Source of the DNA: an uncultured Gammaproteobacteria bacterium
Lineage (GTDB): Bacteria > Patescibacteriota > Patescibacteriia > SG8-24 > DYFX01
Assembly: GCA_964404275.1 (NCBI GenBank)
Contig: CAYOJH010000006.1
Location: 1,525 to 65,524 of the forward strand
Reading direction: 5' to 3'
DNA: 64,000 nucleotides
Under the pieces are notes generated by a model. The model was given only the letters and a program-made list of their open reading frames with translations. It was not told where the DNA came from and searched no databases. The translations under genes were made by a program, and so were the position numbers. Positions 12,272 to 53,938 of the stretch are shown here, piece after piece; within the stretch, counting starts at the first letter, position 1, and each line of letters begins with the position of its first letter.

Positions 12272-12311
12272 GTTACGGTGGATTTAAGGTCTTTTTACCA
12301 AGGAGGCGCCG

Positions 12312-13601: not shown

Positions 13602-13605
13602 AACG

Positions 13606-13632
13606 CCCTGTACCGTACGGTGCAGGGTTTTT
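13606..13632. terminator. rho-independent terminator hairpin (bidirectional, between convergent genes)
   Basis: ccctgtaccg-tacgg-tgcaggg stem followed by ttttt. Confidence 0.45.
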
Positions 13633-14463: not shown

Positions 14464-14483
14464 CGAGTCCTCCTGACCCGACT

Positions 14484-16175: not shown

Positions 16176-16273
16176 GGCTTCCAGTATAACAAATGTGAAC
16201 GAAAACGGCGTTGACGCGCGCGCCGCGCGGCGGTACAACTGACGCACCACCCGTTCTTTGAGAGGAGAACCCG

Positions 16274-17071: not shown

Positions 17072-17100
17072 AAAGCGCGCCCCGTACGGCGCGCCTTTTT
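17072..17100. terminator. bidirectional rho-independent terminator
   Basis: aaaagcgcgcc-ccgtac-ggcgcgccttttt between convergent genes. Confidence 0.5.
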
Positions 17101-18433: not shown

Positions 18434-18495
18434 GGGCTTCAGTATAGCATTCCCCGCACGCCCTTTTTCGCGAAAACCGCTCTTTCAAGCGGTTT

Positions 18496-36697: not shown

Positions 36698-37356
36698 AAG
36701 TTTGAATAGTATTCGTCTTTTCGATCGGCAAAAACCACGAGCCGTTTGTTGTACTGTTTAGCGCGTTTGTCCCATACGCCGACGACGCAGGTCACGAGAT
36801 TGAGATGCGATCCTCCATCGCTGGAACCGAAGACGTCGGTCGTATCCGCGCCCGCGTCGTATTGCCGGATATCGCGCACCACGAAGGTCGTGACGACACC
36901 CTTGTCGTCCTGGACCAGGATCGTATCGCCGGGTTTCGTTTTTTTCAGATTCGCGAAGGCCGCGGTCGCTCCGTAGAGCCAATTCACGTGTCCGGCGATG
37001 ACCGCGCTGCCCGTCTCTCCCGGACGAGGTCCTAACGCGTACCAAGCGGCATCTTTGGGACGCCGAGGCACGTTCATGGAACCGTCTGCCGCCAACGCGA
37101 CCTGCTCGACAGCCGCGTTCAAGGAGACGCGCGGGATTTTGATTCGTACGGGAATGCCGAAGCTCTTCTTGACCGAGACGGCTTTCGGGACCTGAACCAC
37201 AGCGAGCATGGTCGATCCGTCGCTGGCCTCAACGGCATTCACCAACGCGTCGCGCATGAGGACGCTTTGCCAGAAAAACGCGGCGATGCCGACCGCCAAG
37301 GCCAAGAATGCGCCCAGCACGCCCTTGTGTATGTGCCCCCTGTTCTTTTTATGCAT
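36694..37356 (-). CDS. sortase (class E/F-like transpeptidase)
   Basis: N-terminal TM anchor; catalytic His (AVIAGHVNW), TLxTC Cys (LNLVTCVVG) and Arg (RLVVFADR). Confidence 0.8.
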   Translation of the reverse strand: MHKKNRGHIHKGVLGAFLALAVGIAAFFWQSVLMRDALVNAVEASDGSTMLAVVQVPKAVSVKKSFGIPVRIKIPRVSLNAAVEQVALAADGSMNVPRRPKDAAWYALGPRPGETGSAVIAGHVNWLYGATAAFANLKKTKPGDTILVQDDKGVVTTFVVRDIRQYDAGADTTDVFGSSDGGSHLNLVTCVVGVWDKRAKQYNKRLVVFADRKDEYYSNL

Positions 37357-37365
37357 ACGCCTTAT

Positions 37366-37401
37366 GAAGAAGAGCCGCGCGCCCGCGCCCGGCTCTTCTT
37401 C
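37366..37401. promoter_or_regulatory. intergenic stem-loop immediately upstream of sortase RBS (possible attenuator/terminator)
   Basis: gaagaagagccg-cgcgcccgcgcc-cggctcttcttc perfect 12-bp stem; lies between surface-protein gene stop (37413) and sortase start (37356). Confidence 0.4.
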
Positions 37402-37412
37402 AAGAATGCATT

Positions 37413-39074
37413 TTAACGGCCGCGCGAAGCGATCCTTTTTTTCTTCCGGCGAGGCGCAATCAGGTGCATGGCGTAGAGGAGCACGGCGACGAAGGCGCCG
37501 GCCGCGACAAGACTCCAGGTCAGGATGCGGCTCGCAAGGGCGACCGTCGATGTCGCCGAAGCCGTGACGACAGGCAGCGTCCGCGCAGCCGCGATCGGCA
37601 AGGCGGGAACCGGCGTGGCTACCACGACGGTTGCGACGGCGAAGTCTCGTACGGTGAAACCGTTGGCGCTGCCGATGACGACGGCCGTATTCGTCGTGGT
37701 CTTGGAGAGTTTTGCCTTGCAGGTATAGATCCAGGCTTCGGACGGATCAAGTTCTCCGTCCCCGTTCTTGTCGCCGGAGATGCGCTTTAAAGGAGCGCAC
37801 TTGTCGTCCGTAATGCGGACATGGCTGAGCGCAACCTTTCCCGGGTTCGTGATTCTTTCCGTGTACGTGACGTCGCCTCCTCCGGCGGGCAAGGTCAGCG
37901 GGCTCGGAATTTTCGTGACATGGATCAAGGGGGGCGCCGCGATGCCGGCATTCGGCAGCTCCGGAGCGCTGACCACGACCGTCGCGCTTGCGAGGTCGAT
38001 CGCGCTCAGACCGTTGGCCCAACCGGTCGCGACGACCGTGTTGGTGTGGGTTTGCGAGAGCGTGGTCGTGCAGCGATACACCCACGTTTCGTCCACGTCG
38101 AGCTTGGCGTCGGCGTTGGCATCGCCGGAGATGAGCGTGATAGGACTGCAGGAATCGCCGATCATCGTGATATTCGTGACCGGTACCGTGCCGATATTGC
38201 GGAGCGTGTACGTGTACTCGACCGGACCGGGACCGTGCGTTAAGGCCAAGGGATTCGGCACTTTGACGACGTCGATCAAGGGAGGTACCGGAGGAATGAC
38301 GACGGGCGGTGGGGGAGGAGGCTCGGGAGGGATCACGATGGGCGGCGGCGCGGGCACGAAGATATCGTCATTCGTGACGATGCAGACGCGGTTGTCGCCG
38401 GGGTTCAGGTTCAGCTGGCCATTGATATCGCAGTCGCCAGAGAATGTCCGGATATACCCCGCATCGCCGGCTTCCGTTACGGTGAAGACATCGCCCGTGG
38501 CAAGGTAATCGTTCGTCACTCCAGATGCGACTCGGTTTCCGTTCACATAGAGCGGAAAGTCGGAGATGGTTCTGGCGCCGCCGTTGTCGTTGACGACGAT
38601 TTTAACGACGTTGATCGTCCCCATGCGCGACGTCCCTCCTCCGGATGAAGAGGGGCTTGCGGGAGTCGGAGCGGGCGGGACGGCGTTGACGCAGGGTCCG
38701 AAAGAGGTCCAGGTATCCGTCGCGCAAGAGTAACGCGTGCCGCAGAGCAGGATCGTGCCGGCCGTGTCGGCGTACAGCGAGATGTCATGTCCGGTCGTCG
38801 GTGCCCCGCAGTTGTCATTCCCGTTCGGGATGTTCGTTTGCGTGCCGTTCGGCTCCGCGCTCGCGATGAGTCCGGAATAGGTTGGCGCGTTACCGATGAG
38901 GTTATAAAACCAATAGGCATCCGCGCCCGTGTTCTTTCCGGTATACGAACACGTGTCAATGTATTGAACGTGGGTGGTGCAGGTGATTGAGGCGACGTCC
39001 GATGCCAGCGAGGGCGTCGCGCTCAAGAGCATGAGCGCGACGATCGAAATCCCCAGCCCTTTGGGGTAGTTCAT
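37413..39074 (-). CDS. cell-surface repeat protein (Cna-B-like + DUF11-like repeats) with non-canonical C-terminal sorting-signal-like tail
   Basis: Signal peptide MNYPKGLGISIVALMLLSA (ATG at 39074); Cys-rich N-domain, GTINVVKIVVNDNGGARTISDFPLYVNG Cna-B module, two DUF11-like repeats; C-terminus LPVVTAS...hydrophobic...PRRKKKRIASRGR. Confidence 0.65.
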   Translation of the reverse strand: MNYPKGLGISIVALMLLSATPSLASDVASITCTTHVQYIDTCSYTGKNTGADAYWFYNLIGNAPTYSGLIASAEPNGTQTNIPNGNDNCGAPTTGHDISLYADTAGTILLCGTRYSCATDTWTSFGPCVNAVPPAPTPASPSSSGGGTSRMGTINVVKIVVNDNGGARTISDFPLYVNGNRVASGVTNDYLATGDVFTVTEAGDAGYIRTFSGDCDINGQLNLNPGDNRVCIVTNDDIFVPAPPPIVIPPEPPPPPPVVIPPVPPLIDVVKVPNPLALTHGPGPVEYTYTLRNIGTVPVTNITMIGDSCSPITLISGDANADAKLDVDETWVYRCTTTLSQTHTNTVVATGWANGLSAIDLASATVVVSAPELPNAGIAAPPLIHVTKIPSPLTLPAGGGDVTYTERITNPGKVALSHVRITDDKCAPLKRISGDKNGDGELDPSEAWIYTCKAKLSKTTTNTAVVIGSANGFTVRDFAVATVVVATPVPALPIAAARTLPVVTASATSTVALASRILTWSLVAAGAFVAVLLYAMHLIAPRRKKKRIASRGR

Positions 39075-39076
39075 AG

Positions 39077-40891
39077 TCAGGAGGTTTTGCGTCCTGACTT
39101 TTTCCGAAGGCTGTGGAGGAGGAGCGTGGCGGCAAGCAAGCCGGCCGCGACGATGCTCCACGCGGGAACGCCTTCAGCGGGTCCTGCGCCCGTGTTCGGC
39201 AATTTCGGAGCGGCGGCGGCCACGACAACCGTGGCAATCGCGAAGTCGCGCACGGTCATGCCGTTCGCTTCGCCGGTGGCGATGGCGGTATTGGTCGTGG
39301 TCTTCGCCAGCATCGCTTGGCAGGTATAGGTCCACGTTTCGGAAGGATCAAGCTTGTTATCTCCGTTGGTATCGCCGGAGATACGCACCATCGGCGCGCA
39401 GGTGTCGTCGTTGAGCTGGACATTGCTAAGCGCGATCGTGCCGGGGTTGCTGACTTTTTCCGTGTAGGTGATCAGGCCGCCTTTCGCGCCCAAGGCCAGC
39501 GGGCTCGGAAGTTTCGTGACATGGATCAGCGGCGGCACGACAGGCGCGCCGACGACGACCGTTGCGCTGGCAAGATCGGTCGCGCTGATGCCGTTGGCCC
39601 AACCGGTCGCGACGACCGTGTTCGTATGGGTTTGCGTCAAGGTGGTCGTGCAGCTGTAGATCCACGTTTCGTTCACGTCAAGCTTCGCATCATGGTTGAG
39701 ATCGCCGGAGTTCAAGACAATGGGAATGCAGCTGTCGCCGACCATCGTGACGTCCGTGACGGGAACCGTGCCGACGTTACGAAGCGTGTAGGTGTACGTC
39801 ACCGATCCGGGACCGTTCGGCAGGGCCAGCGGACTCGGGACCTTGACGACGTCGATCAGCGGCGGCACGGGCGGAGTGACGACGGGTGCGCCGATGTCGT
39901 TATTCGTGATGATGCAGAAGCGGATATCGCCCGGATTGAGGTTCAAGCGGCCGTCGGCGTCGCAATCGCCAGAAAAAGATTGCGTGTAGCGCGGATCGCT
40001 CGTTTCCGTCACGGCATAGACGCCGGCCGGGGCGGGGAAGTCATACGTGGCGCCGGAAGAGACGGAGATCCCGTTCACGAACAACGGGAAGTCCGCGATG
40101 GTCTTAGTGCCGCCGTTATCATTGATAACTTTTTTGATGACGCCGATCGTACCCGAGTGGCTGCCGCCGGTTGAAACGGGCGTCACGGGAGCTGCGCAGG
40201 TCGGAACCGTGACGGTGTCGGTATTCGTCGTGACCGTGCCGCCAAAAGCCAAGGCTCGCCCTGTCCAGTTGGTGTTGGCGCCCACGGTGATGCCCGAGGC
40301 GTCGATGTCCGTACCGAAGAAGGTCGTATTGGCCGCGAGCGTCGTGGCCTGGGTCGGCGTCCAGAAGACGTCACACGCCGAAGCGCCGCTCAGCGTGACG
40401 ACGGCGCCGGCCGTCGATGTCAGTGCGCCCACGGGCCTGAAAATATAGGTTCCCGTGCCATTCAGCGTCAAAGGACCACCGACATCCATTGCTCCGTTGC
40501 TGCAATAGACGCCAGGCGCATAGACGCCGATCGGACCATGGGTCGTATCCGTGGAAAGATCGATCGCGCCGGCCGCGAACGTGAAGGTGCAGGGCTGGGA
40601 AGCCAACGCCGTGGAGGCATTACCTTGATCGGTACCTGCCGTCGAGTACGGAGCGCCGGACCCATAATTCGCATGCGTGCCCAGGGGGGCAACGGCCGGA
40701 GGCGTTGTGAACCCGACGTCGCCATTGATCGTGGTCGTCGTCGTGTTCGTGTAGGTGCTCGCCAGAACACCGTAGCTTGCCGCCGCTCCCAGCGAAGGCG
40801 ACGTGGCCGCAAGCGCGGCGACGGGACCGAATAGGCTGAATAGTAAAGCCAGAGCTGCTACGCCGCTCCCAACCCTTCGAAAAGTTTTCAT
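39077..40891 (-). CDS. LPXTG-anchored cell-surface repeat protein (Cna-B-like + DUF11-like repeats)
   Basis: Signal peptide; repeat modules as above; C-terminal LPNTG + hydrophobic segment + RKKSGRKTS = canonical sortase sorting signal. Confidence 0.75.
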   Translation of the reverse strand: MKTFRRVGSGVAALALLFSLFGPVAALAATSPSLGAAASYGVLASTYTNTTTTTINGDVGFTTPPAVAPLGTHANYGSGAPYSTAGTDQGNASTALASQPCTFTFAAGAIDLSTDTTHGPIGVYAPGVYCSNGAMDVGGPLTLNGTGTYIFRPVGALTSTAGAVVTLSGASACDVFWTPTQATTLAANTTFFGTDIDASGITVGANTNWTGRALAFGGTVTTNTDTVTVPTCAAPVTPVSTGGSHSGTIGVIKKVINDNGGTKTIADFPLFVNGISVSSGATYDFPAPAGVYAVTETSDPRYTQSFSGDCDADGRLNLNPGDIRFCIITNNDIGAPVVTPPVPPLIDVVKVPSPLALPNGPGSVTYTYTLRNVGTVPVTDVTMVGDSCIPIVLNSGDLNHDAKLDVNETWIYSCTTTLTQTHTNTVVATGWANGISATDLASATVVVGAPVVPPLIHVTKLPSPLALGAKGGLITYTEKVSNPGTIALSNVQLNDDTCAPMVRISGDTNGDNKLDPSETWTYTCQAMLAKTTTNTAIATGEANGMTVRDFAIATVVVAAAAPKLPNTGAGPAEGVPAWSIVAAGLLAATLLLHSLRKKSGRKTS

Positions 40892-41025
40892 GCGCGTCTT
40901 ATATAGACGCCACGACGCATGCGGAACTTAAGTGTTCGGCGACGCCCCATGGCAACTAAGCATTACCCAGTTGTCAAGTAATTGATTTAATCTTAGCACA
41001 TTTTTCAGACCCTGTGTGTGAATAA
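40892..41025 (-). promoter_or_regulatory. conserved ~110-nt upstream leader/promoter element, copy 1 (paralog of 43599..43725)
   Basis: Shares blocks (aaatgtgctaaga/tta, tcaattacttgaca, ggtaatgc, gccgaacacttaagttccgca, agacgcgc-ATG) with region upstream of gene 41517..43598; contains TTGACA. Confidence 0.4.
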
Positions 41026-41040
41026 CTATTCTGTTCAGCT

Positions 41041-41520
41041 CTATTTTAGAGGCTTTGTCTCGCCGATTGCCTCATCGGCCGTATCCGCGTCAGCTTCCGC
41101 CTTCGTGCGATGGATGCGGCCGTCGATATGATTCGGCGGCGCGTAGACCGTATAGAGCTTGAGCGCTTCGGCGCCGGTGTTTTTGAAATTATGTTTCGTG
41201 CCCGCGGTCACGACGACGACATCGCCGGGGCCGATCGGGAACGGCTTGTCATTGAGGTATCCCGTGCCCGTTCCCGAAATGAAGAAGAGCGTCTGTTCAG
41301 TATACGTGTGCGTTTCTTCGCCGACCTCGCCGCCGGGCGGAATGCTCATGACCACCAACTGGCTATTCGGACCGGTGAAGACGACGCGGCGGAAATAGTC
41401 GTTTTCCTGCGCCTGCGCGAGAATGTTGCCGTGATAGCTCATGGGAATGTGGGTGGGAGAGCTCGCGCAGCCCGTGCCGAGAAGCAGGAGGCCGGCGAGA
41501 AGAATAAGAAGGCGTTTCAT
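41041..41520 (-). CDS. cupin domain lipoprotein
   Basis: Lipobox LLGTGCASS; cupin motifs (GEVGEETHTYTEQ...PGDVVVVTAGTKHNFKNTG). Confidence 0.6.
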   Translation of the reverse strand: MKRLLILLAGLLLLGTGCASSPTHIPMSYHGNILAQAQENDYFRRVVFTGPNSQLVVMSIPPGGEVGEETHTYTEQTLFFISGTGTGYLNDKPFPIGPGDVVVVTAGTKHNFKNTGAEALKLYTVYAPPNHIDGRIHRTKAEADADTADEAIGETKPLK

Positions 41521-43598
41521 TGTTTTGCGATCCGCCGGTGAAGAATCAAACCGCTGACAACGATGATGGCGAGGAGCAAAAGGGCCGTGATCAACCCGTC
41601 CAGAGGCGTGGCAAAGAGCTCCAAGATGATCAAGCGGACCTTCTGCGTGAATGGAGTTTTTTTCGAGGCGTCGGCCGAAGTCGTTTCAGACGTTGAGACC
41701 GTTGATGGATGAACGGCATCGGTCCCCGTACTCGGAAGTTTCGATTCCGGCATCAGCTTGGACTTTGTCGCAAGATTGAACACGCCGGTCGCCGGCAAGC
41801 CGACGTCTCTTTGATATCTGATGAGGGCGGCGCGCGTGAGCGTTCCGAAATAGCCTTTCGCGACGCGCAACGGCATGGTCAGGAACCCGTCGCGCTCGAG
41901 CGCGGTCTGGAGCGCCGCGACATCCGCGCCTCGCGCGCCCAGCTTGAGAGACTGATACAGGATCGGGGCAAGGATATCGGCGTTTTCCGGCACGGCGTCG
42001 GTGAAGACCACGCGCCGTTGCGGGTAGGTGCCGTTGACCTGGTTCCAAACCCCTTCGCAGGTAATGAGATTCAGGTGCGCGAGGCCGTCGTTCGACGTAA
42101 AGACGGTCGTGGCATCGGCGTTTCTGTCGAACAGGCTGATGGTTCGAACGACGAAGGCAAGCGTTTCGCCTTTATCGTTGACGACGTAGACGATATCGCC
42201 CGCTTTGAGCTTGTCGAGGTCGTAGAAGACGAACGGCACGCCCTTATTGATGCCGAAGTGTCCGCCGATCACGGCGCTGCCTTCCTGGCCGGGATGCGGG
42301 CCGAGCGCGAACCAGGCGACGTTTTCCGAACCCGCCGGGACGTCCATTCTTCCGTCGGGCGTGATCAGCGCGTCCTCGATCGCGGAATCGACGCCGATCG
42401 TCGGAATCTTGAGGCGGACGGGAAGTCCCTGCGGAATGCCGCCCGGATCGCGGATGCTGGAATAGGCGATTTGATTCGAAAGAGATCCCGTGATCGGAAA
42501 TTTCGCCACGGGAAATTTCCAACCGAAGGCGAGGTCAGATGAAACCTGGGGTTCTGCAATCTGATTGCGTCGGGGCGACAAGAAGAAGTACAATCCGCCG
42601 CCCAAGATGGCGGCGAGCACAATGATAGACAGCACTCTTAAGGAGCGTTTGAAGCTCTTTCGCGCTTTCCCGGTCTTGCGCTTCCGCGTGAGCAGCAACA
42701 GGAGAAGGAGGATCGCCAAGACCAAGGACATGATTCCCCACAGAACGATTTTCGACCCGGCGCCGAGTCCGGTCAGCGGAAATTTCGGGACATCCTGATT
42801 CGAAAAGCCGGGAACGAGGCTCCTGACCATGACGGTCAGAGCGAAGTCGTCCACCGCCCGCAAGCCGTTCGCGAACGCCGTCACGTGCACCGTGTTGGTC
42901 GTCGTCTGCTTCAAGTTCGCCGTGCACGTGTAGATCCAGACCTCGTTCGTGTCCAGGAGGCTGTTGCCGTTCGTGTCTCCTAATTTTCCCGACATCGCGC
43001 TGCACTTGTCATCGACGATGGTGACGTTGCTCAGCGGGACAGCGCCAGGGTTGTTGACTCTGTAGGTGAAGGTGATCGGACCGCCCTCGGCCGGCAGGGA
43101 AAGCGGATAGGCGACTTTGGTGACGTTGATGACGCTGACGAGCGGAGCGGGATTCGCGGAGCCGACGACGACGGTCGTATACGCCTTGTGCGTAGCGGTG
43201 ACGCCGTTGGCGCTGCCGGTGACCGTGGCCGTGCTTTGCGTCGTTGCGGAAAGCGTCGTCGTGCAGGTATAGCGCCAGGTTTCGCCGTACTCGAGTCTGC
43301 CATCCCCGTTATCGTCGCCGTCATGAAAGGCGACGGCGCCACAGGCGTCATCGACGACATGCACGTCCGTCAGCGCGATCTCCTGAAGAAAATTCTTCAC
43401 CGCGTAGTTGTACGTGACCTTGCCGCCCGCTTGAGGCAAGACCAACGGGTCGGGCACCGACGTGATGCCGATCAATGGCACGTATAAGACGCTGCCGCTT
43501 CCTTGCGCGCCGGCCGCAAACGCAGCGATCGGACCGATCAAAAGAGATACGAAAAAAAGAGCCGCAATGGCCCGTGAACCCGTTTTATTTGTATGCAT
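41517..43598 (-). CDS. fusion protein: surface repeat domains + sorting-signal-like TM segment + sortase catalytic domain + C-terminal PG_binding_1 domain
   Basis: ATG at 43598 (MHTNKTG) with signal peptide; two DUF11-like repeats; KFPLTG + hydrophobic + TRKRKTGKARK; second TM; sortase motifs (IGGHFG, LNLITCEG, RRVVFTD); C-terminal LKLGARGADVAALQTALERDGFL...GYFGTLTRAALIRYQRDVGL. Confidence 0.65.
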   Translation of the reverse strand: MHTNKTGSRAIAALFFVSLLIGPIAAFAAGAQGSGSVLYVPLIGITSVPDPLVLPQAGGKVTYNYAVKNFLQEIALTDVHVVDDACGAVAFHDGDDNGDGRLEYGETWRYTCTTTLSATTQSTATVTGSANGVTATHKAYTTVVVGSANPAPLVSVINVTKVAYPLSLPAEGGPITFTYRVNNPGAVPLSNVTIVDDKCSAMSGKLGDTNGNSLLDTNEVWIYTCTANLKQTTTNTVHVTAFANGLRAVDDFALTVMVRSLVPGFSNQDVPKFPLTGLGAGSKIVLWGIMSLVLAILLLLLLLTRKRKTGKARKSFKRSLRVLSIIVLAAILGGGLYFFLSPRRNQIAEPQVSSDLAFGWKFPVAKFPITGSLSNQIAYSSIRDPGGIPQGLPVRLKIPTIGVDSAIEDALITPDGRMDVPAGSENVAWFALGPHPGQEGSAVIGGHFGINKGVPFVFYDLDKLKAGDIVYVVNDKGETLAFVVRTISLFDRNADATTVFTSNDGLAHLNLITCEGVWNQVNGTYPQRRVVFTDAVPENADILAPILYQSLKLGARGADVAALQTALERDGFLTMPLRVAKGYFGTLTRAALIRYQRDVGLPATGVFNLATKSKLMPESKLPSTGTDAVHPSTVSTSETTSADASKKTPFTQKVRLIILELFATPLDGLITALLLLAIIVVSGLILHRRIAKQ

Positions 43599-43725
43599 GC
43601 GCGTCTCATGACGGCCGGCGCGTCGTGCAGAACTTAGACGTTCGGCGGCACGCGGCAGCGAGGCATTACCTTGCTGCCAAGTAATTGACTTAAGATTAGC
43701 ACATTTTATAGGCATCGACAAAAAA
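43599..43725 (-). promoter_or_regulatory. conserved upstream leader/promoter element, copy 2
   Basis: See copy 1; same block order and spacing relative to ATG. Confidence 0.4.
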
Positions 43726-43742
43726 AGACCTTCCATGAAGGA

Positions 43743-43759
43743 AAGTCTCTTTTGGTAGC
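43743..43759. repeat. left direct repeat (att-like) GTCTCTTTTGGTAGCCC
   Basis: Matches 51294..51310 GTCGCTTTTGGTAGCCC (16/17); right copy overlaps tRNA-Glu 3-prime end incl. CCA. Confidence 0.5.
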
Positions 43760-43883
43760 CCGGACCACTGAAATGTGGAACGAAATCATGACGGACCTCA
43801 AGGCGTGGACTGTGTTTGGTAGGGACTTGAGGGCTACTGCCGCAGCAGCTTGATAAGACACTGCCACGGGGGAATGGAAGAGG

Positions 43884-45398
43884 TTACTGCGCCGATGAAA
43901 CAACCTCGTTAAGAACGCGCCAGATTGCGATCATGGCCTCGGTATCTCGACCGCAATACTTTTTAAGGTCGGCAGCGATTTTCGCTTTTACCTCGTCGGT
44001 CTGCCCTTCAAAAATCATCCGGTACCAAGCATCCATTGCCGCGCCACCATCCTGAATTTCCAGCTCTTTGTAAGTTAGCGTGGGTACTAACACGGGTAAT
44101 ACTTTCTTTATCGATGTTCTCCCCCGGAAATCCGGATGTACATGGAACTGCTTCTGAAAAATTTCCATCAAATCATAAATGCGAGCATTGATATCAGACA
44201 AGAATGAATCGTGCTGCGGATTTCTCTCCGCAAGCTGAGAGTTGATCTTCCTTTCAAAGGGCTTATACCACACGATAATGGTACCGCTTTCCCCAATAGT
44301 CCCCTGTAGCTTATCGATGATGGCCTCTGACGGGTCTGTTGCTTCCTCGTGCAAGTACTCGAAATGCTCAAAATCAGCATCCGGGCCACTCAGTCTATCC
44401 AAAGAAAATTGGAATGGTATCTGTTGATATGGCTTATAGCCCTTAAACAGCGGGATCGCTGGCGCGTAACTTTCATAGTCAAGAAAATACAACGGGAAGG
44501 CTAGCGAAGAAAGCTCACGTTCGATGGCATCCTTGTCGATGATTGCCTTTTGAGTCTTGTGGGCAATGGCCTGCATTTTCTGAATATCCGACAAAGAAAA
44601 CTCATCCGGCACATCCTTAATGTCGAAGATTCCGTCTTCAACTAAACTCTCCAACTTTTTCTTACTGATCCTCGATAAGTCATGCACCGAGTATTCAGGT
44701 ACCTGCGGATGGGAGTAGCAAAAAGTTGAGCACTGGGAATTCCTGCCGACATACAGGCATTCACAGGATAGGGCGCTCTCATCAAGTTGGGTCAGCGCCT
44801 CTCTCGCTCGATCCATTCGTGCTTTTACATCCTCCATCCTGTCAGCAACCTTTTCGGTCACATCCTCCATCTCGAAGAGCTCTGAAAGTGAGATTTCGTC
44901 ACCACGAACGTACTCTTTGTTCAGGTGAATGATTTTGATTTGCCCAATTTTTATACCCACTGATTGGAGAATGCGTGCCTGAAAGGATGCGTCATCGATA
45001 TGGTCCCGACCATCCTCCCCTTCGTTCAAAGAATTGGTCCCTTTGACCTCGTATAGATTCCAGCACCCGTGATCCTCATCGAACTCCAAAACGTCGTTAC
45101 GCGCCAAAAAACCGTCGTGAATGAAAGTCGCTTGGAAAAGCGCTTTGGAGCCATGACCCATCAACTCTTCCGTCCTCTTTGCGGCAGCCTCGCCCGACTC
45201 CTCGATTAAAATGCCTTCGGGAAAAAGCTTCCTCGCCCATTGTTCAACAAGGTTTCCTTTTGCCAACAGACCTCGCTCAAATTCTGAGAGGGAGAACATT
45301 GAGCTCAAGTCAGGCTTGTGCACCTTAAGCCACGCGTTCTTTCCGCACGCGCTATATTCGAGAAACAGGGTTTTTGTGAGGTATTTCATTTGATCCAT
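43884..45398 (-). CDS. Cas4/RecB-like PD-(D/E)xK nuclease with Fe-S Cys cluster and C-terminal domain of unknown function (DUF2779-like architecture)
   Basis: Probable start MDQMKYL at 45398; N-terminal Cys (YSACGK), D...EVK nuclease motif (ARNDVLEF...NLYEVKGT), CECLYVGRNSQCSTFC cluster (C-x-C-x9-C-x3-C); ~250-aa C-terminal region unassigned. Confidence 0.65.
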   Translation of the reverse strand: MDQMKYLTKTLFLEYSACGKNAWLKVHKPDLSSMFSLSEFERGLLAKGNLVEQWARKLFPEGILIEESGEAAAKRTEELMGHGSKALFQATFIHDGFLARNDVLEFDEDHGCWNLYEVKGTNSLNEGEDGRDHIDDASFQARILQSVGIKIGQIKIIHLNKEYVRGDEISLSELFEMEDVTEKVADRMEDVKARMDRAREALTQLDESALSCECLYVGRNSQCSTFCYSHPQVPEYSVHDLSRISKKKLESLVEDGIFDIKDVPDEFSLSDIQKMQAIAHKTQKAIIDKDAIERELSSLAFPLYFLDYESYAPAIPLFKGYKPYQQIPFQFSLDRLSGPDADFEHFEYLHEEATDPSEAIIDKLQGTIGESGTIIVWYKPFERKINSQLAERNPQHDSFLSDINARIYDLMEIFQKQFHVHPDFRGRTSIKKVLPVLVPTLTYKELEIQDGGAAMDAWYRMIFEGQTDEVKAKIAADLKKYCGRDTEAMIAIWRVLNEVVSSAQ

Positions 45399-45450
45399 GC
45401 TCGTACGATAGGGTTTTTGTGTATACTTAGTCAAAACACAGGCCCTACCG

Positions 45451-48400
45451 ATGGATAACCCTGCCATTCCGCTAAAAGTGAAACTGCTCTGGAAGGCATC
45501 AAAGCCTGCCGATTTTGATTTGTACAAGGCTGCGCTCGAATGGAGTCTTGTTGATCCGATAATCATTGAAAACCGAGACGACCTTAAGTCCGAGTATCTT
45601 TGGCGCGACAAAATAAAGCCATACCACCATCAAGTCACAAATCTAATCACTTTTTGTCGTCGTCTCCCGGTTACACTTCTCGCAGATGACGTTGGTTTGG
45701 GTAAAACCATCAGCGCTGGCTTGATAGCCAGTGAACTCATGACGCGTGATCGTGTTTCCAAGATTTTGATTGTCTGCCCCAAACTGCTGATGAATCAGTG
45801 GAGCGAGGAATTGGAACAAAAGTTTGGCATTGCGTCGACAACTGCCATTGGTAAGACTCTCATAAAGGCGAAGCCGCCGAAGGATGTCGGGGCGGTAATA
45901 ACAACCTACACATCCGCGAAACTGTATTTAGACGACCTCGAAGACGCGGGTTATCAAATGTTGATTCTTGATGAGGCGCATAAACTTCGCAATCTATACG
46001 GTGTCGATCCGACACCTCAAGTAGCAACTCGTTTTAGAAAAGCTCTGAAGGACAGGCTGTTTAGATACGTCCTGATGCTAACAGCTACGCCAATTCAGAA
46101 TCGCCTTTGGGACTTGTATTCACTTATAGACCTATTGACCGTAGCTCGTGGACACGAGAATCCATTTGGTAGTGAAGGGATTTTTGCGCGTAAGTTTATT
46201 GATGACGATCGAACGCAGGCGCGTCGTCTTAACTTAGGCGCAAAGGATGAATTCCGCTCGATCATTTACCAGTACATGTCGCGTGTTCGGCGCGGTGACG
46301 CGCAGCTATATTTTCCTGAAAGGAAAGTTCTGCTCAAGTCCGTAGCGCCAACCGCAGAGGAAAGCGAGCTGATTGGAATTATTGCGGAACCAATTCAGGA
46401 GTTGAACCGTTTGGGACAAATATCGGTTCTTCAGGCCCTCATCAGCAGCCCTGATGCTTTGGCGGCCCAGCTTAGAACGATGGCACGAAACGAAACCATA
46501 CCAGCGGAGCTTGCGACTCGCGTCCGGGAGGTCGTCAAGAAAATGAAGACGACAGCGAAGATGCAGGGCTTGGGATCATTGGTTGAAAAACTTAGAAAGG
46601 AGCGTCCCGAAGACTGGCGGATGGTAGTCTTCACGACTCGCAGGGAAACCCAAACGACGATTCAGGCCTTCTTGGAAGGGCAGGGCATCGCTTGTGGGGT
46701 TATCAATGGGGATTCCGGGCGACGAAACCAAGAGACGATCAATAATTTTAAATGCTACCCTCCCCAGATTAACGTAATCATTTCTACCGAAGCCGGGTCC
46801 GAGGGCGTTAACTTACAGGCCGCAAACGTCCTTGTTAACTACGATCTTCCGTGGAATCCGATGGTGGTGGAGCAGCGCATTGGCCGTATTCAACGCCTTG
46901 CGTCTGAGCACAAGACCGTCTCCATTTTCAATATCATCCTAAAGGGTACTTTCGAGGAGTATATAGTCGGAAGGTTGATGGAAAAACTTCAGATGGCCTC
47001 CCAAGCCATTGGTGATGTTGAGTCGTTGCTTCAGGCGTCGGGAATGGAAGAGGGGGAGGGAGAAATCACTTCATTTGAGGAGCAAATCCGTCGGCTGGTT
47101 ATCGAGTCATTGGCTGGGAAAGATGTTGAAGAAGCCACCCGGATGGCAGAAAAAAGCATCGAACACGCAGAGGCCGAACTCGATCGCGAGGAGAAAAATA
47201 TTGATTCGATGTTGGGCGGTATGGGTGATGTTGTGGGAGTCGATCCGTATCCTCCGAAATTGACCCCGGTCAATCACTCAATGGGACTTCGTGAGTTCGT
47301 GCTTGGCGCACTAGAAGCTCAGGGCGAAAAAGTAACGGCCCAGCCGAACGGTTTGTACGTCTCAGAATCCCATGGTCAAAAGGAACTGTTTCGTTTTGAT
47401 AATGAAGTTGCTGATCCTGAAACGACCAGTACCTTATATGCCCCCGGAAGTCCGGCATTTGAGCGTCTGGTGAATCGTTGTACCAGCCGCGGTTATCACA
47501 CGGTAAACGATGTCGATATAGAACCGCTAAAAAAGGCGATGGATATCGCGGGCGGTTGGGCTAAAGCATTTGATGGCCGATTTGATTCGGCTGCTCCGTT
47601 GGCGGTGTATAGGAATTTTGAAGGTTCGGCAATCATCAGGGTTCATGCAACGGTGGCTCATGACAGCTATGAGCGTCTCGTGGAGTCTGATTGTGCAATA
47701 AAAATGGATCATGACTTGGGCAAACTCGGTCTAGAGCCTCTCCATGCTTCGATTAGCGACCCGCACAAAGTTGGGTTGGATACGGATTGCCTGATTGATA
47801 AGGCATTCCATGATCCCGACATATCAGAATTTTGCCGTTTCTACGGTGAGCGCTTGGAGCAGGAGCTCAAGGCTGTAGGTGATGATGAGCGCAAAAGAAA
47901 AAAGACCGTCGATGACTTCACTCCCCGCATTGCCGTGGAACTCGTGGGGCTAAATGGCAACATCCATCGCCGAATTAAGTTGAACACCAAATATCGAATT
48001 GATGAGGGGGAGTACGAAAGTTCATTGACTGTCATTCCGAATAGCGAAGAAGTTATTGAGGCACCCGAGATCAAGAAGTGCGAGAAAACTGGGCGGCATG
48101 CCCCAGCCGACTGCTTTGGGATTTGTGAAATTAGCAAATTACAAGTGCTGAGGCACCTATTGGTTGCCTCAGACATTTCAGACAGGCAGGCTCTTCCAGA
48201 GCACGTGATTAAGTGCTCATACTCGGGCAAAAAGGTGCTGATCGATGAGGCAGCAAAATCGGACATCTCTGGACATTTTGTGACTGCATCATTGCTGCTT
48301 ACGTCAGCGATTAGCGGAAAGAAGGGGGAGCCAACATACTTTGGTCAATGTGAGTTCACCTCGGTGACAGCCCTCAAGGACGAGCTTTTAACGAGTGAAG

Positions 48401-49149
48401 TATCCGGAAAGCTCTACAGGTCCGATGAGCAGCTCCGCTCTACGGTTTCGGGTAAATCCGGACATCGCCAAGAGTTTATAAAATGCGCGGTAACCAGTCA
48501 GCCCTTACTGAGGGAAGAAGCAGAGCAATGCGAAGTAACTGGCACGCTAGTTGCGCCCGGCATCCTCGAAGAGTGTTCGGTGACGAAGAAAAAGGTCTTG
48601 CCGAGCGAACTGGCGAAAAGCGAATTCAGCGGAAAAATGGCACTCCAAAAGTACTTCGTTTCTAGTTCAATTTCAGATGGCAAAATTCTTGAGTCCGAAG
48701 CCGTTCGATCTTCGAAGGGAAAATATTGCTCCCCCGCAGAAGTAAAACCGTGCGCATGGAGCGGTCTTAAATACCACCCTGATGATTTAGAGATATGTCA
48801 CCTGTCGGGTCTTTCAGTTCACTCCGTATACGTTACACCCGATGGCCCTCCAAGAATTACGTCACTGGCCCGACTCCTTGATGGAACGCTCAGAAAAGCT
48901 GATGGGACTGAATATTGGCAGAAAATCGTTGATGCTCTAGCTGGCTCGGTTGGCGGCGTTCTCAAGGTGGATGCGGCGGAGTTTTCTCCGGACGGCACGC
49001 TACTCGCGGTTTGCTTGGAATCAACGAAATGGTTGGTGAAGACTCGCTATTTGGGCCTCGTGTTTTCATTGCGACAAAACTCGGCTACGGGTCGAATCGT
49101 GTCTGGAAAGCGAAAGGATCATAGGTGGATTGACGACCTCGTAATTTAA
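45451..49149 (+). CDS. SNF2/Rad54-family (SF2) helicase, 1232 aa, with long C-terminal extension containing degenerate Cys/Ser-Gly-Lys tandem repeats
   Basis: Motif I DDVGLGKT, II ILDEAHKLRN, III LMLTATPIQNRLWDLYSLIDLL, helicase-C motifs YDLPWNPMVVEQRIGRIQRL; residues ~880-1125 form ~15 tandem ~15-aa repeats. Confidence 0.85.
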   Translation: MDNPAIPLKVKLLWKASKPADFDLYKAALEWSLVDPIIIENRDDLKSEYLWRDKIKPYHHQVTNLITFCRRLPVTLLADDVGLGKTISAGLIASELMTRDRVSKILIVCPKLLMNQWSEELEQKFGIASTTAIGKTLIKAKPPKDVGAVITTYTSAKLYLDDLEDAGYQMLILDEAHKLRNLYGVDPTPQVATRFRKALKDRLFRYVLMLTATPIQNRLWDLYSLIDLLTVARGHENPFGSEGIFARKFIDDDRTQARRLNLGAKDEFRSIIYQYMSRVRRGDAQLYFPERKVLLKSVAPTAEESELIGIIAEPIQELNRLGQISVLQALISSPDALAAQLRTMARNETIPAELATRVREVVKKMKTTAKMQGLGSLVEKLRKERPEDWRMVVFTTRRETQTTIQAFLEGQGIACGVINGDSGRRNQETINNFKCYPPQINVIISTEAGSEGVNLQAANVLVNYDLPWNPMVVEQRIGRIQRLASEHKTVSIFNIILKGTFEEYIVGRLMEKLQMASQAIGDVESLLQASGMEEGEGEITSFEEQIRRLVIESLAGKDVEEATRMAEKSIEHAEAELDREEKNIDSMLGGMGDVVGVDPYPPKLTPVNHSMGLREFVLGALEAQGEKVTAQPNGLYVSESHGQKELFRFDNEVADPETTSTLYAPGSPAFERLVNRCTSRGYHTVNDVDIEPLKKAMDIAGGWAKAFDGRFDSAAPLAVYRNFEGSAIIRVHATVAHDSYERLVESDCAIKMDHDLGKLGLEPLHASISDPHKVGLDTDCLIDKAFHDPDISEFCRFYGERLEQELKAVGDDERKRKKTVDDFTPRIAVELVGLNGNIHRRIKLNTKYRIDEGEYESSLTVIPNSEEVIEAPEIKKCEKTGRHAPADCFGICEISKLQVLRHLLVASDISDRQALPEHVIKCSYSGKKVLIDEAAKSDISGHFVTASLLLTSAISGKKGEPTYFGQCEFTSVTALKDELLTSEVSGKLYRSDEQLRSTVSGKSGHRQEFIKCAVTSQPLLREEAEQCEVTGTLVAPGILEECSVTKKKVLPSELAKSEFSGKMALQKYFVSSSISDGKILESEAVRSSKGKYCSPAEVKPCAWSGLKYHPDDLEICHLSGLSVHSVYVTPDGPPRITSLARLLDGTLRKADGTEYWQKIVDALAGSVGGVLKVDAAEFSPDGTLLAVCLESTKWLVKTRYLGLVFSLRQNSATGRIVSGKRKDHRWIDDLVI

Positions 49150-49195
49150 GTGAACGATCCTTGACGCGGGGTATGTAGGCGATAGGCTGGTCTGC

Positions 49196-49453
49196 ATGAA
49201 CCCCAGAACGTCACCCACTTTTGCGAATGACGGATACCGAAGGATTTTTTGTAATGCCTGCGGTCACTTTATCGGGGAGACTCATCTTGGCGAAAAACGG
49301 GAGAGGCAGCTCCGTTGTAAGTTCTGCGGCACGACCGTCAATTTACGACCGCCCCTGAAAGTGGAGCACGATAGCCAGAGGTACATCGAATTTGGCCCTC
49401 AAGCCGCCTGCTTCACGGCTGATTTGACTGACCCGCCTCGTCAGGGTAATTAG
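49196..49453 (+). CDS. small zinc-ribbon protein
   Basis: CNACGH...CKFCG (CxxC-x20-CxxC) in 85-aa ORF directly downstream of helicase. Confidence 0.45.
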   Translation: MNPRTSPTFANDGYRRIFCNACGHFIGETHLGEKRERQLRCKFCGTTVNLRPPLKVEHDSQRYIEFGPQAACFTADLTDPPRQGN

Positions 49454-49521
49454 TATCAATCGACCCGTAACAACCGATTTCGGGCTATAAAGGCACCCCC
49501 TTCCTAGGCGGGTGTGAAGAG

Positions 49522-49567
49522 AGCCCGGCAGAAGCCTGTTTTTTGGCTTCTAGCCGGGCTTTTTTTA
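49522..49567. terminator. strong rho-independent terminator
   Basis: agcccggcagaagcc-tgtttttt-ggcttctagccgggct followed by ttttttt. Confidence 0.55.
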
Positions 49568-49613
49568 TTGGTCACCCCTTGGGGCAGACACCACAAAATA
49601 CCCGCTTTCTGCC

Positions 49614-49814
49614 ATGCTTTCCCTAGCACAAGCAAGGAAAATCGATCCTAGTTTGGAGGATGTGTCCGACGAAGAATTGTTGGGCATTCTTGAGGCGTTG
49701 TATGCATTTGGTCGGGTGGCACTAGATACTTGGTCCACTAAGCAGCATGTTTCCAATAATCCCCTTGGGGTCCAGACTGAAGCAGTAGCACCCGGTATGC
49801 TGCATAGAACATGA
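49614..49814 (+). CDS. small ORF translationally coupled to recombinase (possible accessory/directionality factor)
   Basis: 66-aa ORF whose stop overlaps recombinase ATG (ATGA); no motif; may be spurious. Confidence 0.2.
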   Translation: MLSLAQARKIDPSLEDVSDEELLGILEALYAFGRVALDTWSTKQHVSNNPLGVQTEAVAPGMLHRT

Positions 49815-51343
49815 GCCAAATTTTGAATAAAACCTGCGTCATTTATTGTCGTGTCTCTTCGAAAGAGCAGGTTGAAGGGACGAGTTTGGAAACCCAACAA
49901 CGGCTTTGTCGAGAATACGCTGATCAGCAAGGTTGGTTGGTTTCCGAGATTTTCATGGAACTTGGTGAATCAGCAAAGACGGCTGATCGAACTGAATTTG
50001 CCAAGGCAATCAACTACTGCACGAGCAAAAAAGGTCGCACTTCGTATTTTGTGGTCTATAAGCTCGACCGCTTTAGTCGGAAAGCTGAAGATCATCTCAT
50101 GATCCGTGCTGTTTTGAGTAAGGCGGGTACTGAATTGCGTTCAGTTACCGAGCCAATCAACGAAACTGCAACGGGAAAACTGATGGAGACGGTCATTGCG
50201 GGATTTGCTGAATTCGACAACAACGTAAGGACTGAGCGAACCAAGAACGGGATGATTCAGCGAGTGCAGGAAGGTATTTGGGTATGGACTCCACCACTCG
50301 GATACCACAAACCCGTCAGGGGTAAAAAGACAAACATCGTTCCCGACCCTCTCGTGGCCCCGCTCATAAGGGCTGGCTTTGAGGAATACGCCAAAGGGGG
50401 ACGCACGTACAAGGCTTTGGCGGCCTTCTGGACGCGACAGGGCCTGCTCACGAAGCGAGGAAGGCCAATCAAGCTTCAAGAGGTTCAGAAGATGCTTAGG
50501 AACCCGGTTTATTGCGGCACCATCAGGGCCTTTGGGGGAGAATGGAACGGCGGCTTCGAACCCATTGTCTCCCGGCAGTTGTTTCTGGCTTGTCAGGACA
50601 AAGTAGGGAATTCGAGCTGGTCGGCACCACGCCTGACTGACAATGCGACGTTCCCACTTCGTAAGCTGGTCATCTGCTCTGAGTGTGGGACGACGCTGAC
50701 CGGGAGTTCAACAAGGGGGAGGCAGGGAAAGCGCTACCCTTACTACCATCATTCCAAGAAAAACTGCACGAGGCCGAAAACCATCCCCAAAGAAAAATTC
50801 GAAAAGGCTTTTCTTGAGTGTCTGGCCAAGGTTGAGCCAAACAAGAAATACGAGCACCTATTCAAGGCGGTCATTACTGATATTTGGAAAACAAACCACA
50901 AGAATCTTGATGACCAAAAATCATCCGTTCGTAGGAACATCGAAAAGTTGGAAATTGAAAAACAGAGGATTTTCGAGTTGCATCGTGCAGGCACATATTC
51001 AGATCAGGATTTCAAAGAACAGCGTGCTATCGTGGCGGGGAAGATGGAGGTCCAATACAGCTTGATCGAGGAGTACAGGGGAGAGGAATTCAATATGGAT
51101 GAGGCCTTGGAATACTGCTTCGATTTTGTTGGCAAGGCGACCAAAACTTGGTTGGAGCTAGAGGGCAACTACCCAGCCCGAATCCGTTTTCAAAACCTTA
51201 TTTTCAAGGCGCGGCTGACTTTTGACGGGGAGGAATTTGGAAACACGAAATTATCGCCAATCTTCCAACTAAAAGCGACCTCTCGCGGGGAGAAGTCGCT
51301 TTTGGTAGCCCCAAGGGGAGTCGAACCCCTATTTACTCCGTGA
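49811..51343 (+). CDS. large serine recombinase (resolvase/invertase N-terminal catalytic domain + recombinase domain + zinc ribbon)
   Basis: CVIYCRVSSKEQ catalytic Ser motif, YKLDRFSRK, recombinase domain, zinc-ribbon ICSECGTTLTG...C; 3-prime ~40 nt of ORF read through the tRNA-Glu 3-prime half, so true C-terminus uncertain. Confidence 0.85.
   Translation: MSQILNKTCVIYCRVSSKEQVEGTSLETQQRLCREYADQQGWLVSEIFMELGESAKTADRTEFAKAINYCTSKKGRTSYFVVYKLDRFSRKAEDHLMIRAVLSKAGTELRSVTEPINETATGKLMETVIAGFAEFDNNVRTERTKNGMIQRVQEGIWVWTPPLGYHKPVRGKKTNIVPDPLVAPLIRAGFEEYAKGGRTYKALAAFWTRQGLLTKRGRPIKLQEVQKMLRNPVYCGTIRAFGGEWNGGFEPIVSRQLFLACQDKVGNSSWSAPRLTDNATFPLRKLVICSECGTTLTGSSTRGRQGKRYPYYHHSKKNCTRPKTIPKEKFEKAFLECLAKVEPNKKYEHLFKAVITDIWKTNHKNLDDQKSSVRRNIEKLEIEKQRIFELHRAGTYSDQDFKEQRAIVAGKMEVQYSLIEEYRGEEFNMDEALEYCFDFVGKATKTWLELEGNYPARIRFQNLIFKARLTFDGEEFGNTKLSPIFQLKATSRGEKSLLVAPRGVEPLFTP
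51294..51310. repeat. right direct repeat (att-like) GTCGCTTTTGGTAGCCC overlapping tRNA 3-prime end
   Basis: See left repeat. Confidence 0.5.
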
Positions 51344-52882: not shown

Positions 52883-53938
52883 ATGCGCATCCTCGGCATC
52901 GAAACGTCTTGCGACGAGACCTCGGTCGCCCTGCTCGACGTGAACAAGGGCGTTGCTCGCATCGCGAAGCACCTCACGGCTTCGCAGGTTTTGAAGCACG
53001 CGCAGTATGGCGGCGTCGTTCCGGAGGTGGCCGCGCGCCTGCATGCCGAAACGCTGCCGCTCTTGATCGACGAGATGGGCGTCAGCGGAAAGGATCTCGA
53101 TGGCATCGCCGTCACGCGCGGTCCGGGACTCATCACCTCGCTGCGGGTCGGCACGGATTTCGCCCGCGCCTTGGCCTATGGCTGGAATCTTCCGCTCGTC
53201 GGCGCGAATCACATCGAAGGCCATATCGCGGCCAACTGGATCGGAAAAAAAGTGGCCGCGGCCTATCGGTTTCCGGCCCTGGTGCTGGTCGTTTCGGGCG
53301 GCCATACGGAACTTATTCTGATGAAAGGCTTCGGAAAGTACGAACGGATCGGTTCGACGCTTGACGATGCCGCCGGCGAAGCCTTCGACAAGGTCGCCAA
53401 GATGCTCGACCTCGGTTATCCGGGCGGTCCGGCCGTCTCGAAGCGCGCCTTGCTTGGAAATCCGGAGACGTTCGCGTTTCCGCGCCCGCTGCTCAACAAA
53501 CAAAATTTCGATTTCAGCTTTTCCGGCCTCAAGACCGCTGTCCTCTACACGCTCCAGCGCAAGAAGAACTGGTCGGCCGAGAACGTGAACGATATCTGCG
53601 CGTCATTCCAAGCGGCCGTCGTCGAGACGTTGGTCATCAAGACGCTTCGCGCCGCCAAAGCGAAGAACGCAAAAACCGTTTTTCTGGCCGGAGGCGTCGC
53701 CGCCAACGCGACGCTGCGCGAAACGCTGGCGGCCTCCGTCAAAAAAGAATTGCCCGGCGTCGAAGCCGTCATCCCGGCCTTGGAATACTGCACCGACAAC
53801 GCCGCCATGATCGCCATGGCCGGCTATTTCAGCTTCATGTCGCTGTCTTCCCGCTTTTCTTCGCCGTCATCCCGAGCGAAGCCGAGGGATGCATGGAAAG
53901 GCATGGAAGCCGATCCGACCTGGGAACTCGGCATATGA
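52883..53938 (+). CDS. tsaD: tRNA N6-adenosine threonylcarbamoyltransferase TsaD (Kae1/Gcp)
   Basis: [23 protein letters not shown] metal-binding motif, GGVAAN; full-length ~350 aa. Confidence 0.9.

Follow-up and report, generated by a model that had tools for sequence, protein, structure and literature searches.

A putative integrative element of a Patescibacteria genome whose attachment site appears to lie inside its large serine recombinase gene

How did an island bearing a large serine recombinase (LSR) come to lie against the 3′ end of a tRNA gene? Serine integrases, the principal tools for inserting large DNA, are thought to avoid tRNA genes. The locus that raises the question is part of a 64,000-nucleotide stretch of contig CAYOJH010000006.1, referred to here as the window. 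A preliminary description of the window had noted a segment of low GC content that is bounded by direct repeats, encodes an LSR and abuts a tRNA-Glu gene. Comparison of this segment with related loci indicates, with a probability that we put at about 0.88, that positions 43755-51308 constitute a 7.55-kb integrative element of a Patescibacteria (candidate phyla radiation, CPR) genome, placed by its own LSR into the 3′ end of the tRNA-Glu(UUC) gene.

Boundaries of the island, its recombinase and the attachment core

The features on which this reading depends are as follows.

43745..43761, plus strand: left direct repeat and left junction, with the family-invariant 4-nt core GTAG at 43755-43758
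51295..51311, plus strand: right direct repeat, attR, with the invariant core GTAG at 51305-51308, corresponding to tRNA C74, A73, U72 and C71
51303..51377, minus strand: tRNA-Glu(UUC), the proposed integration target (ARAGORN; Rfam tRNA, 61 bits), with its 3′ end from about position 71-74 onward supplied by the element
49811..51343, plus strand: LSR in its integrated form, 510 aa (Pfam Resolvase, Recombinase and Zn_ribbon_recom; PHROG integrase, 1.1e-88)
49614..49814, plus strand: conserved 66-aa partner gene, overlapping the LSR start codon by 4 nt
43755..43853, plus strand: orphan 'native tail' exon, a 99-nt open segment reading V-A-RTTEMWNEIMTDLKAWTVFGRDLRATAAAA-stop, which is also the P′ arm of attP

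The GC content is 0.493 within 43762-51294, and the 10-kb flanks have values of 0.608 (left) and 0.621 (right). Taken in intervals along the sequence, it passes from 0.60-0.65 outside to 0.45-0.52 from ~43.75 to ~51.3 kb, which bears out the drop reported earlier between ~43.74 and ~51.3 kb. The left repeat copy, GTCTCTTTTGGTAGCCC, spans 43745-43761 and the right copy, GTCGCTTTTGGTAGCCC, spans 51295-51311. They are identical at 16 of 17 positions, as had been described; the coordinates given at that time (43743..43759 and 51294..51310) were 2 and 1 nt too low, respectively. The possibility had also been raised that the repeat is frequent elsewhere. Within the 64-kb window, these two copies are the only matches at ≤2 mismatches, with 0.01 expected by chance. 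The right copy comprises the last 9 nt of the tRNA-Glu (GGGCUACCA) and 8 nt downstream, confirming that it covers the acceptor/CCA end. This tRNA is the sole one of the window. It is intact, and its sequence, including the G1-U72 pair, matches the tRNA-Glu of related genomes.

The recombinase has the domains of a large serine integrase. Its catalytic domain is present (PF00239, 9.9e-34), with the R-x-S nucleophile motif in YCRVSSKEQ, and R14, S16 and Q20 are invariant or nearly so in homologue alignments. The Recombinase (PF07508) and zinc-ribbon (PF13408) domains were also found, with C289, C292 and C319 invariant. The stop codon, TGA at 51341-51343, lies 41 nt within the tRNA gene and is the antisense of U35-C36-A37 (anticodon-loop positions 35-37). 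Residues 1-~500 are encoded by the element and the last 10 (PRGVEPLFTP) are translated from the antisense of the tRNA. The 3′ end of the recombinase gene thus runs into the tRNA gene, as had been described, and the domains of the protein are intact. An AlphaFold2 model of a homologue with a native tail, P0105, had a mean predicted local distance difference test (pLDDT) score of 89 and contained long helices at 342-389 and 395-420. According to Foldseek, its best matches among solved structures were complexes of serine integrases with att sites (E 3e-20, full length). Among the open reading frames (ORFs) of the island, none encodes a tyrosine integrase (Phage_integrase domain) or a transposase, and the LSR is the only recombinase. 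The public annotation of the protein (P0001) is a 462-aa product starting at Met49, which would drop the catalytic serine motif; the 510-aa ORF aligns with its homologues from residue 1.

A protein search returned 1,980 LSR homologues, mostly of 500-512 aa and ~50% identical. When aligned, nearly all end in ...KSxLVA-PRG[IV]EP..., the antisense translation of the acceptor arm and T-arm of a tRNA. One genome per species was scanned, which gave 209 loci. We retrieved 80 of these, nearly all of them from Patescibacteria metagenome-assembled genomes (MAGs). At 56 of the 80, the LSR ORF stops in a minus-strand tRNA, which is tRNA-Glu (UUC or CUC) at 51 loci, Arg(UCU) and Lys(CUU) at two each, and Ala(UGC) at one. 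Of the remaining 24 loci, six are truncated at the end of a contig. Members that target Arg, Lys and Ala tRNAs use the same sub-location within them, such that integrated loci of the family are always positioned at the CCA/discriminator/acceptor and almost always in tRNA-Glu. The nucleotide register between LSR and tRNA is held across ~50% protein divergence, whatever the cargo. Judging from these alignments, the juxtaposition of LSR and tRNA characterizes the whole clade, independent of cargo. A few copies with a native tail were observed on long contigs of Acidobacteriota (L072) and Longimicrobium (L066); these may represent a sister clade with a different layout. On viral contigs, only LSR relatives of ≤37% identity were found, and assignment of the element to a recognized phage family was rejected, as no LSR relative on a viral contig was closer than 37%.

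To define the core, we aligned attL and attR of 33 islands in register, with position 0 as the first base of the Val codon (tRNA C74). Identity between the two sites was distributed as follows.

Left of -2: ~30% (background)
-2 and -1 (TG): 82% and 70%
0 to +3 (GT[AG]N; tRNA C74, A73, N72, N71): 100%
+4 to +6 (CCC): 82-91%
+7: 3%

The recombination core is therefore shorter than the 17-bp repeat. The profile of the 33 islands indicates a common core of 7-9 bp, normal for serine integrases, with four invariant nucleotides. The repeat of the window would be 17 bp long because its left copy sits in a 44-nt relic of an earlier related element, described below. The 2-bp crossover is predicted to fall within GTAG (43755-43758 / 51305-51308). 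Beyond the core, the P′ arm of the element and the B′ arm of the tRNA are alike in register at +8 to +14, and both contain T[C/G]GAAC. This motif corresponds to the T-loop in B′ (+16 to +21) and to the Trp-Asn codons in P′ (+21 to +26). By analogy with characterized integrases, the zinc-ribbon domain would read T[C/G]GAAC on the tRNA side, 5 bp further out in attP than in attB. The corresponding outward shift of the zinc-ribbon-domain motif is 5 bp in the LI integrase model and 4 bp in SPbeta (PMC11722253).

The attachment site within the recombinase gene

Family members that do not adjoin a tRNA run past ...LV[A/T] into a conserved tail, in which six variable residues are followed by W-N-x-h-x3-L-x2-W-x2-F. 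This native tail is fused to the LSR at five loci (L014, L015, L019, L030 and L066) and in 13 of the top 120 protein clusters (523-555 aa); ~101 of these clusters have tRNA-antisense tails. When the window element is circularized at the repeat, the LSR frame continues from 43755 as VA-RTTEMWNEIMTDLKAWTVFGRDLRATAAAA-stop, with the same motif at the same spacing. The tail segment was also called as an open ORF on a Logan contig (L081). An orphan tail exon was present at 33 of 57 integrated loci. It is on the LSR strand, at a median of 5.2 kb (range 3.4-8.9 kb) upstream of the tRNA, and in every case it follows a copy of the tRNA end in frame. The tail pattern is biased with respect to strand, with 53 plus-strand and 10 minus-strand matches in 1.22 Mb of loci. 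It recovered 33 islands, versus only ~10 for a 20-nt ungapped match to the far end.

Two further arrangements join the tail to a recombinase. In the tandem array of L019, the reading frame of recombinase A continues into the tail exon of element B, and the LSR of element B ends in tRNA-Glu. Moreover, a homologue with a native tail, P0095 (527 aa), occurs on eight contigs from different runs, all 4,644 bp long and all overlapping by 30 nt at their termini. Five of these P0095 contigs were retrieved; they can be rotated onto one another with 0 mismatches and represent a 4,614-bp circle without a tRNA, and P0095 is the only recombinase that this free circle carries. The circle (L104-L108; Logan SRR26786760/61/68/69/71) also carries the partner gene and encodes a DUF2335 membrane protein and a secreted protein of 452 aa rich in Pro and Thr; it contains no recognizable replication gene.

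In the P0105 model, the tail is a confidently predicted helix at 501-521, with 10-residue blocks at pLDDT 93 and 82. Over the 15 tail codons after W-N, the ratio of non-synonymous to synonymous polymorphism (pN/pS) was 0.62 in frame versus 0.93 and 1.40 in the other frames, a weak signal at saturated sites. Since the native tail is fused to the LSR in protein clusters, in tandem arrays and in a free circle, sequence comparison places attP within the LSR ORF, and integration would swap 30 native residues for 10 tRNA-antisense residues. The preliminary description had offered two alternatives for this locus. The first, a reconstituted tRNA end carried by the element, agrees with these observations. 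The second, an atypical recombinase, does not hold for fold and domains; it does for the tRNA target and for the position of attP inside the recombinase's own ORF.

The sequence comparisons show the following arrangement. In the free circle, the LSR ORF passes through the core into the 30-residue helical native tail. Integration splits the gene at codons V499/A500, strands the tail exon at the opposite end of the island, 7.5 kb from the rest of the gene, and joins the LSR to 10 codons of tRNA antisense, such that ~98% of the recombinase is kept. The element brings a replacement tRNA 3′ end and, in the subclade of the window, a hairpin and U-run after it. The integration module consists of two genes, the ~60-aa gene followed by the LSR, with cargo that varies between islands.

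Integrase genes that contain their own attachment site are known among tyrosine recombinases. As in the IntP/IntX system of Myxococcus phage Mx8, attP lies in the integrase gene and integration creates a new 3′ end. The attB sites of Mx8 also overlap the 3′ ends of tRNA genes. The attP of Mx8 lies within the int coding sequence, and integration makes a new int 3′ end that does not inactivate the gene and alters its specificity (IntP vs IntX) (PMC6070905). Unlike the present LSR, in which 30 residues would be replaced by 10, Mx8 Int is a tyrosine recombinase and is carried by a 49-kb phage. SSV1-type 'suicidal' integrases also have the att site inside the integrase gene, which is partitioned upon integration into a tRNA gene, and were described in a review as exclusive to archaea (PMC8371274). 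Those are tyrosine recombinases whose gene is destroyed by the split, whereas here ~98% of a bacterial serine recombinase would remain intact.

In SPbeta SprA, directionality is reportedly governed by the element at the extreme C-terminus (Abe 2021, as cited in PMC11722253). Because of this, and because Mx8 IntX differs in specificity from IntP, we considered whether the exchange of C-termini, from a 30-residue amphipathic helix to a 10-residue peptide, is a built-in directionality toggle, in which the state of the DNA would set the direction of recombination without differential expression of a recombination directionality factor (RDF). Under this tentative proposal, which we regard as possible and on balance doubtful, the full-length LSR, made only from the circle, would favour attP x attB. 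The tail-less chromosomal LSR, together with the co-translated ~60-aa protein, would be set for attL x attR, or locked.

History of the tRNA-Glu site and alternative explanations

The island lies in a conserved host context. The host TsaD (52883-53938) is 84-86% identical to TsaD of Patescibacteria MAGs and of the complete genome CP129476.1, and the order tRNA-Glu / extracytoplasmic function (ECF) sigma factor / TsaD / TsaE is kept in relatives with TsaD 79-86% identical. The state of the site in these and other loci varies.

L082: tRNA-Glu site without a recombinase; a native-type terminator follows the tRNA
L087: scar only, an 80-nt recombinase 3′ end (1870-1950) with no recombinase gene
L004 and L003: LSR islands at the tRNA-Glu site
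L001: LSR island, 23-nt tRNA fragment, second 7.6-kb element and intact tRNA (11480-19217)
L083: tyrosine-integrase island beside the same ECF-TsaD genes, in a locus where no tRNA was detected

In L001, the second element, in which we identified no integrase, interrupts the tRNA within its T-loop. An extra orphan tail exon occurs at ~5322 in L010. Scars or frameshifted copies lie at the tRNA-Glu site of relatives in L087, L072 and L076, the last with frameshifted tandem copies. Occupancy is therefore sporadic among relatives, ranging from no LSR to a scar to LSR islands, and the tRNA-Glu site has the appearance of both a graveyard and a hotspot. The earlier suggestion that relatives might carry the same genes with no alternative state can be set aside in view of L082, L087 and the varied islands. 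Comparison with empty sites had also been proposed: L082 provides a relative without an LSR, and a strict empty site of the same species was not found.

The left end of the island carries a trace of such a history. Two features are relevant here.

43718..43754, plus strand: relic of the recombinase-gene 3′ end of an earlier element (P-arm type), within a 44-nt similarity to 51268-51311
51268..51306, minus strand: hairpin and U-run supplied by the element after the CCA end of the tRNA, within the LSR coding sequence and constituting the P arm of attP; -21.2 kcal/mol, z -4.7

The similarity between the repeats stretches leftwards to 44 nt at 73% identity (43718 side versus 51268-51311). Read in frame, the relic yields QKKTFHEGKSLLVA, which resembles C-termini of the family. 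Of 33 positions compared, the left arm of the island in the window shares 27 with the P arm of the L004 element, and the host arms of the 32 other islands share 9-19 with any element arm. The most likely history, as reconstructed from these comparisons, is that an L004-like element occupied the site, that the present element inserted into the regenerated tRNA, and that the older element was deleted down to 44 nt.

On the minus strand, the relic forms a hairpin and U-run directly after the displaced copy of the tRNA 3′ end (-17.1 kcal/mol, z -4.2), and a terminator scan also flagged it. Hairpins with differing stems occur at the equivalent place in the close subclade, and RNAalifold found no family-wide consensus structure on 51 element arms. 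Because of the latter result, we claim an element-supplied terminator for the subclade of the window only, where the hairpin and U-run would provide the tRNA with a terminator-like structure. On the LSR mRNA strand, the same inverted repeat (51268-51306) has a folding energy of -23.4 kcal/mol, with UUUUGG after it, ~35 nt upstream of the stop codon. A terminator-like hairpin thus lies inside the LSR ORF in both integrated and free states.

Several observations weigh against the proposal that the window holds an element inserted by its own LSR. The left junction is attP-like on both arms (relic P plus P′), unlike a true attL, and excision of this copy may be hindered. A search for circular junctions had been suggested at the outset; metagenome scans with the tRNA 3′ half and with the core-P′ junction GGTAGCCCGGACCACTGAAAT returned 0 matches each for this element, and no empty site of the same species was found in such a scan. 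Exact-protein look-ups of the NCBI-annotated LSR (P0001) and of TsaD gave no matches. The only other contig with the island, L081, which was found by look-up of the SNF2 protein described below, carries the integrated form. Catalysis by the LSR is attributed to it from its sequence, and the coding constraint on the tail is only modest in saturated sequences (pN/pS 0.62).

Some of these points would suit a fixed, decaying remnant of a once mobile family, this copy having been trapped or domesticated. The junction of a relic P arm with a P′ arm, lacking a canonical attL, the scars and frameshifted copies at the same site in L087, L072 and L076, and the scans that returned neither circular junction nor empty site are all consistent with such a fate. 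We nevertheless consider it unlikely: the LSR (510 aa), the 66-aa gene and the 33-codon tail exon are intact with all conserved motifs kept, and the GC content, still 12 points below that of the host, suggests a recent arrival. It is less plausible that the 44-nt left repeat is the host's native tRNA-Glu terminator, resembling a P arm through mimicry or shared architecture. This was our first reading of the left 44 nt, and two points favour it: host-side arms of other islands are also hairpin-plus-T-run terminators, and the similarity stops exactly at the A-tract of the hairpin. It was dropped after the outlier test, in which the match to the L004 P arm (27/33) exceeded that of all 32 other host arms (≤19/33), and after comparison with the native terminators of the nearest relatives (L082; host arms of L004 and L010), which belong to another type (CACCCGSC...GSCGGGTG) and are separated from CCA by a spacer. 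The clear scar in L087 and the extra orphan tail in L010 also argue against it.

It seems very improbable that the LSR is a passenger or resolvase and that the island owes its insertion to another mechanism, such as a tyrosine integrase since lost or homologous recombination at a tRNA end that had been duplicated. Islands at tRNA 3′ ends are classically the work of tyrosine integrases, one of which accompanies the island beside ECF-TsaD in L083, and the tRNA of L001 was split by a second element. Against this stand the lack of a tyrosine integrase in the window's island, the LSR-tRNA register locked in 56 of 80 loci, the 7-9 bp core, the location of attP in the LSR ORF and a free circle with this recombinase only. 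An assembly chimera or chance match would account for the repeat and composition shift only at the very margin of credibility. The window does come from a MAG, but L081, an independent Logan contig (run SRR8931233), has the same island and left junction, identical at every base. Chance alone would yield the repeat 0.01 times, and the architecture recurs in dozens of independent assemblies. We therefore retain the integrative element placed by its own LSR as the explanation of the island.

Two observations concern the surroundings. The left flank (33896-43736) encodes large surface proteins with DUF11 / choice-of-anchor repeats, as well as a sortase and a peptidoglycan-binding protein. For the sortase ORF, the first available ATG is located within the relic hairpin, and the true start is probably further in, e.g., at MHTNK.... 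In addition, many loci with Patescibacteria-like gene content and TsaD (L002, L003, L006, L021, L036 and others) were deposited as MAGs of 'uncultured Gammaproteobacteria bacterium' or 'Bacteroidetes'; mislabelling or mis-binning is the probable cause.

Partner gene, cargo and relation to known elements

In 76 of 81 loci, a gene of ~58-66 aa ends within a few tens of nucleotides of the LSR start, often overlapping it. The consensus of its product is MLSxEQxRKIDPxLxxLxDEELxxIRxxLYxxAxLA...SKxPxG. The 66-aa protein of the window had no significant match to Pfam, PHROG or PDB profiles, and no known RDF was recognized in the island. In size, the partner gene recalls small directionality factors such as the 58-aa SprB of SPbeta, and we propose it as a candidate accessory or directionality factor.

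The remaining ORFs of the island are considered to be cargo.

43884..45389, minus strand: DUF2779 protein, 501 aa by the L081 gene call, with the longest ORF extending to 45611 (Pfam PF11074, 3.7e-38)
45451..49149, plus strand: 1232-aa SNF2-family helicase (Pfam SNF2-rel_dom and Helicase_C) with a long repetitive C-terminal region
49196..49453, plus strand: doubtful 85-aa ORF with CxxC...CxxC, from the ORF list; weak PHROG match and no gene call on L081

The cargo genes of the window, including the 85-aa CxxC ORF, had no homologue in any of the 80 loci. According to PADLOC, the SNF2 protein matches helicase components only (BrxHI, DrmD, HmaA and ZorD), with no complete defence system; the DUF2779 protein, the 85-aa ORF and the LSR had no match. 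The repetitive C-terminal half of the SNF2 protein contains recurrent ...SGK... units. In another Patescibacteria genome (L110, 3116-8324), a 1232-aa SNF2 gene adjoins a DUF2779 gene whose product is 67% identical to that of the window, and this pair is neighboured by genes for a Type ISP restriction enzyme, HEPN and a DDE transposase. DUF2779 homologues are common in Patescibacteria and also occur alone in housekeeping contexts, e.g., beside uracil-DNA glycosylase in L111. The SNF2 and DUF2779 proteins may form a defence or repair module outside the scope of PADLOC.

Pfam scans of 119 ORFs from 32 islands revealed defence-type cargo, namely DNA methylases (6), MvaI/BcnI endonuclease, AAA_21/AAA_15 ATPases, AIPR, HNH and UvrD. 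Replication initiators (REP_ORF2-G2P, 5; RepSA, 3), small terminase (3) and the regulators LexA/S24 and M78 were also present. Going by this gene content, the family appears to consist of small integrative elements with replication or defence cargo. The inovirus-type REP_ORF2-G2P, pSAM2-type RepSA and small-terminase genes were observed in islands of 4-8 kb (L002-L079); such islands could be integrated filamentous-phage-like elements or CPR phage satellites.

With the large serine integrases of phages and integrative and conjugative elements (SPbeta SprA, LI/A118, Bxb1 and phiC31), the LSR shares the Resolvase and Recombinase domains and a zinc ribbon with an inserted coiled coil. Its islands likewise have a short common core, and the motif of the right half-site is displaced outward by 5 bp in attP relative to attB, as the LI model proposes. 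Unlike those integrases, it targets a tRNA rather than a protein-coding gene, has attP in its ORF, and would have its C-terminus changed by integration. Its elements are tiny (3.4-8.9 kb), non-phage Patescibacteria islands with a conserved upstream ~60-aa gene. The islands resemble the tRNA islands of the Islander/TIGER type in that the recombinase adjoins the tRNA, the tRNA 3′ end is repeated, composition is foreign, occupancy is sporadic and tandem arrays occur; those islands, by contrast, use tyrosine integrases. Mageeney et al. (2020) reported use of t(m)RNA genes by 44.5% of tyrosine-integrase elements versus 14 of 297 serine-integrase elements, and noted that serine integrases were not known for tRNA targeting, that such use 'has not been reported previously' and that proof was needed (PMC7192596). 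In a literature search that is provisional, most subscription journals lying outside it, we found no description of the attP-in-ORF layout for a serine recombinase, of this family, or of serine recombinases at CPR tRNA genes. A family of large serine-recombinase elements with the attachment site inside the recombinase gene is apparently undescribed.

If our reading is correct, the family supplies a set of natural serine integrases directed at a target that is highly conserved, comprising the T-loop, acceptor stem and CCA. Its two-gene integration module would be a compact one for organisms that currently lack genetic tools. As a gene that would be rewritten by its own reaction, the LSR also offers a natural experiment on the extreme C-terminus of serine integrases and on directionality. 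For the CPR, the data point to tRNA-Glu as a hotspot for 3-9 kb elements that carry restriction-modification, Abi-like, Rep and small-terminase genes.

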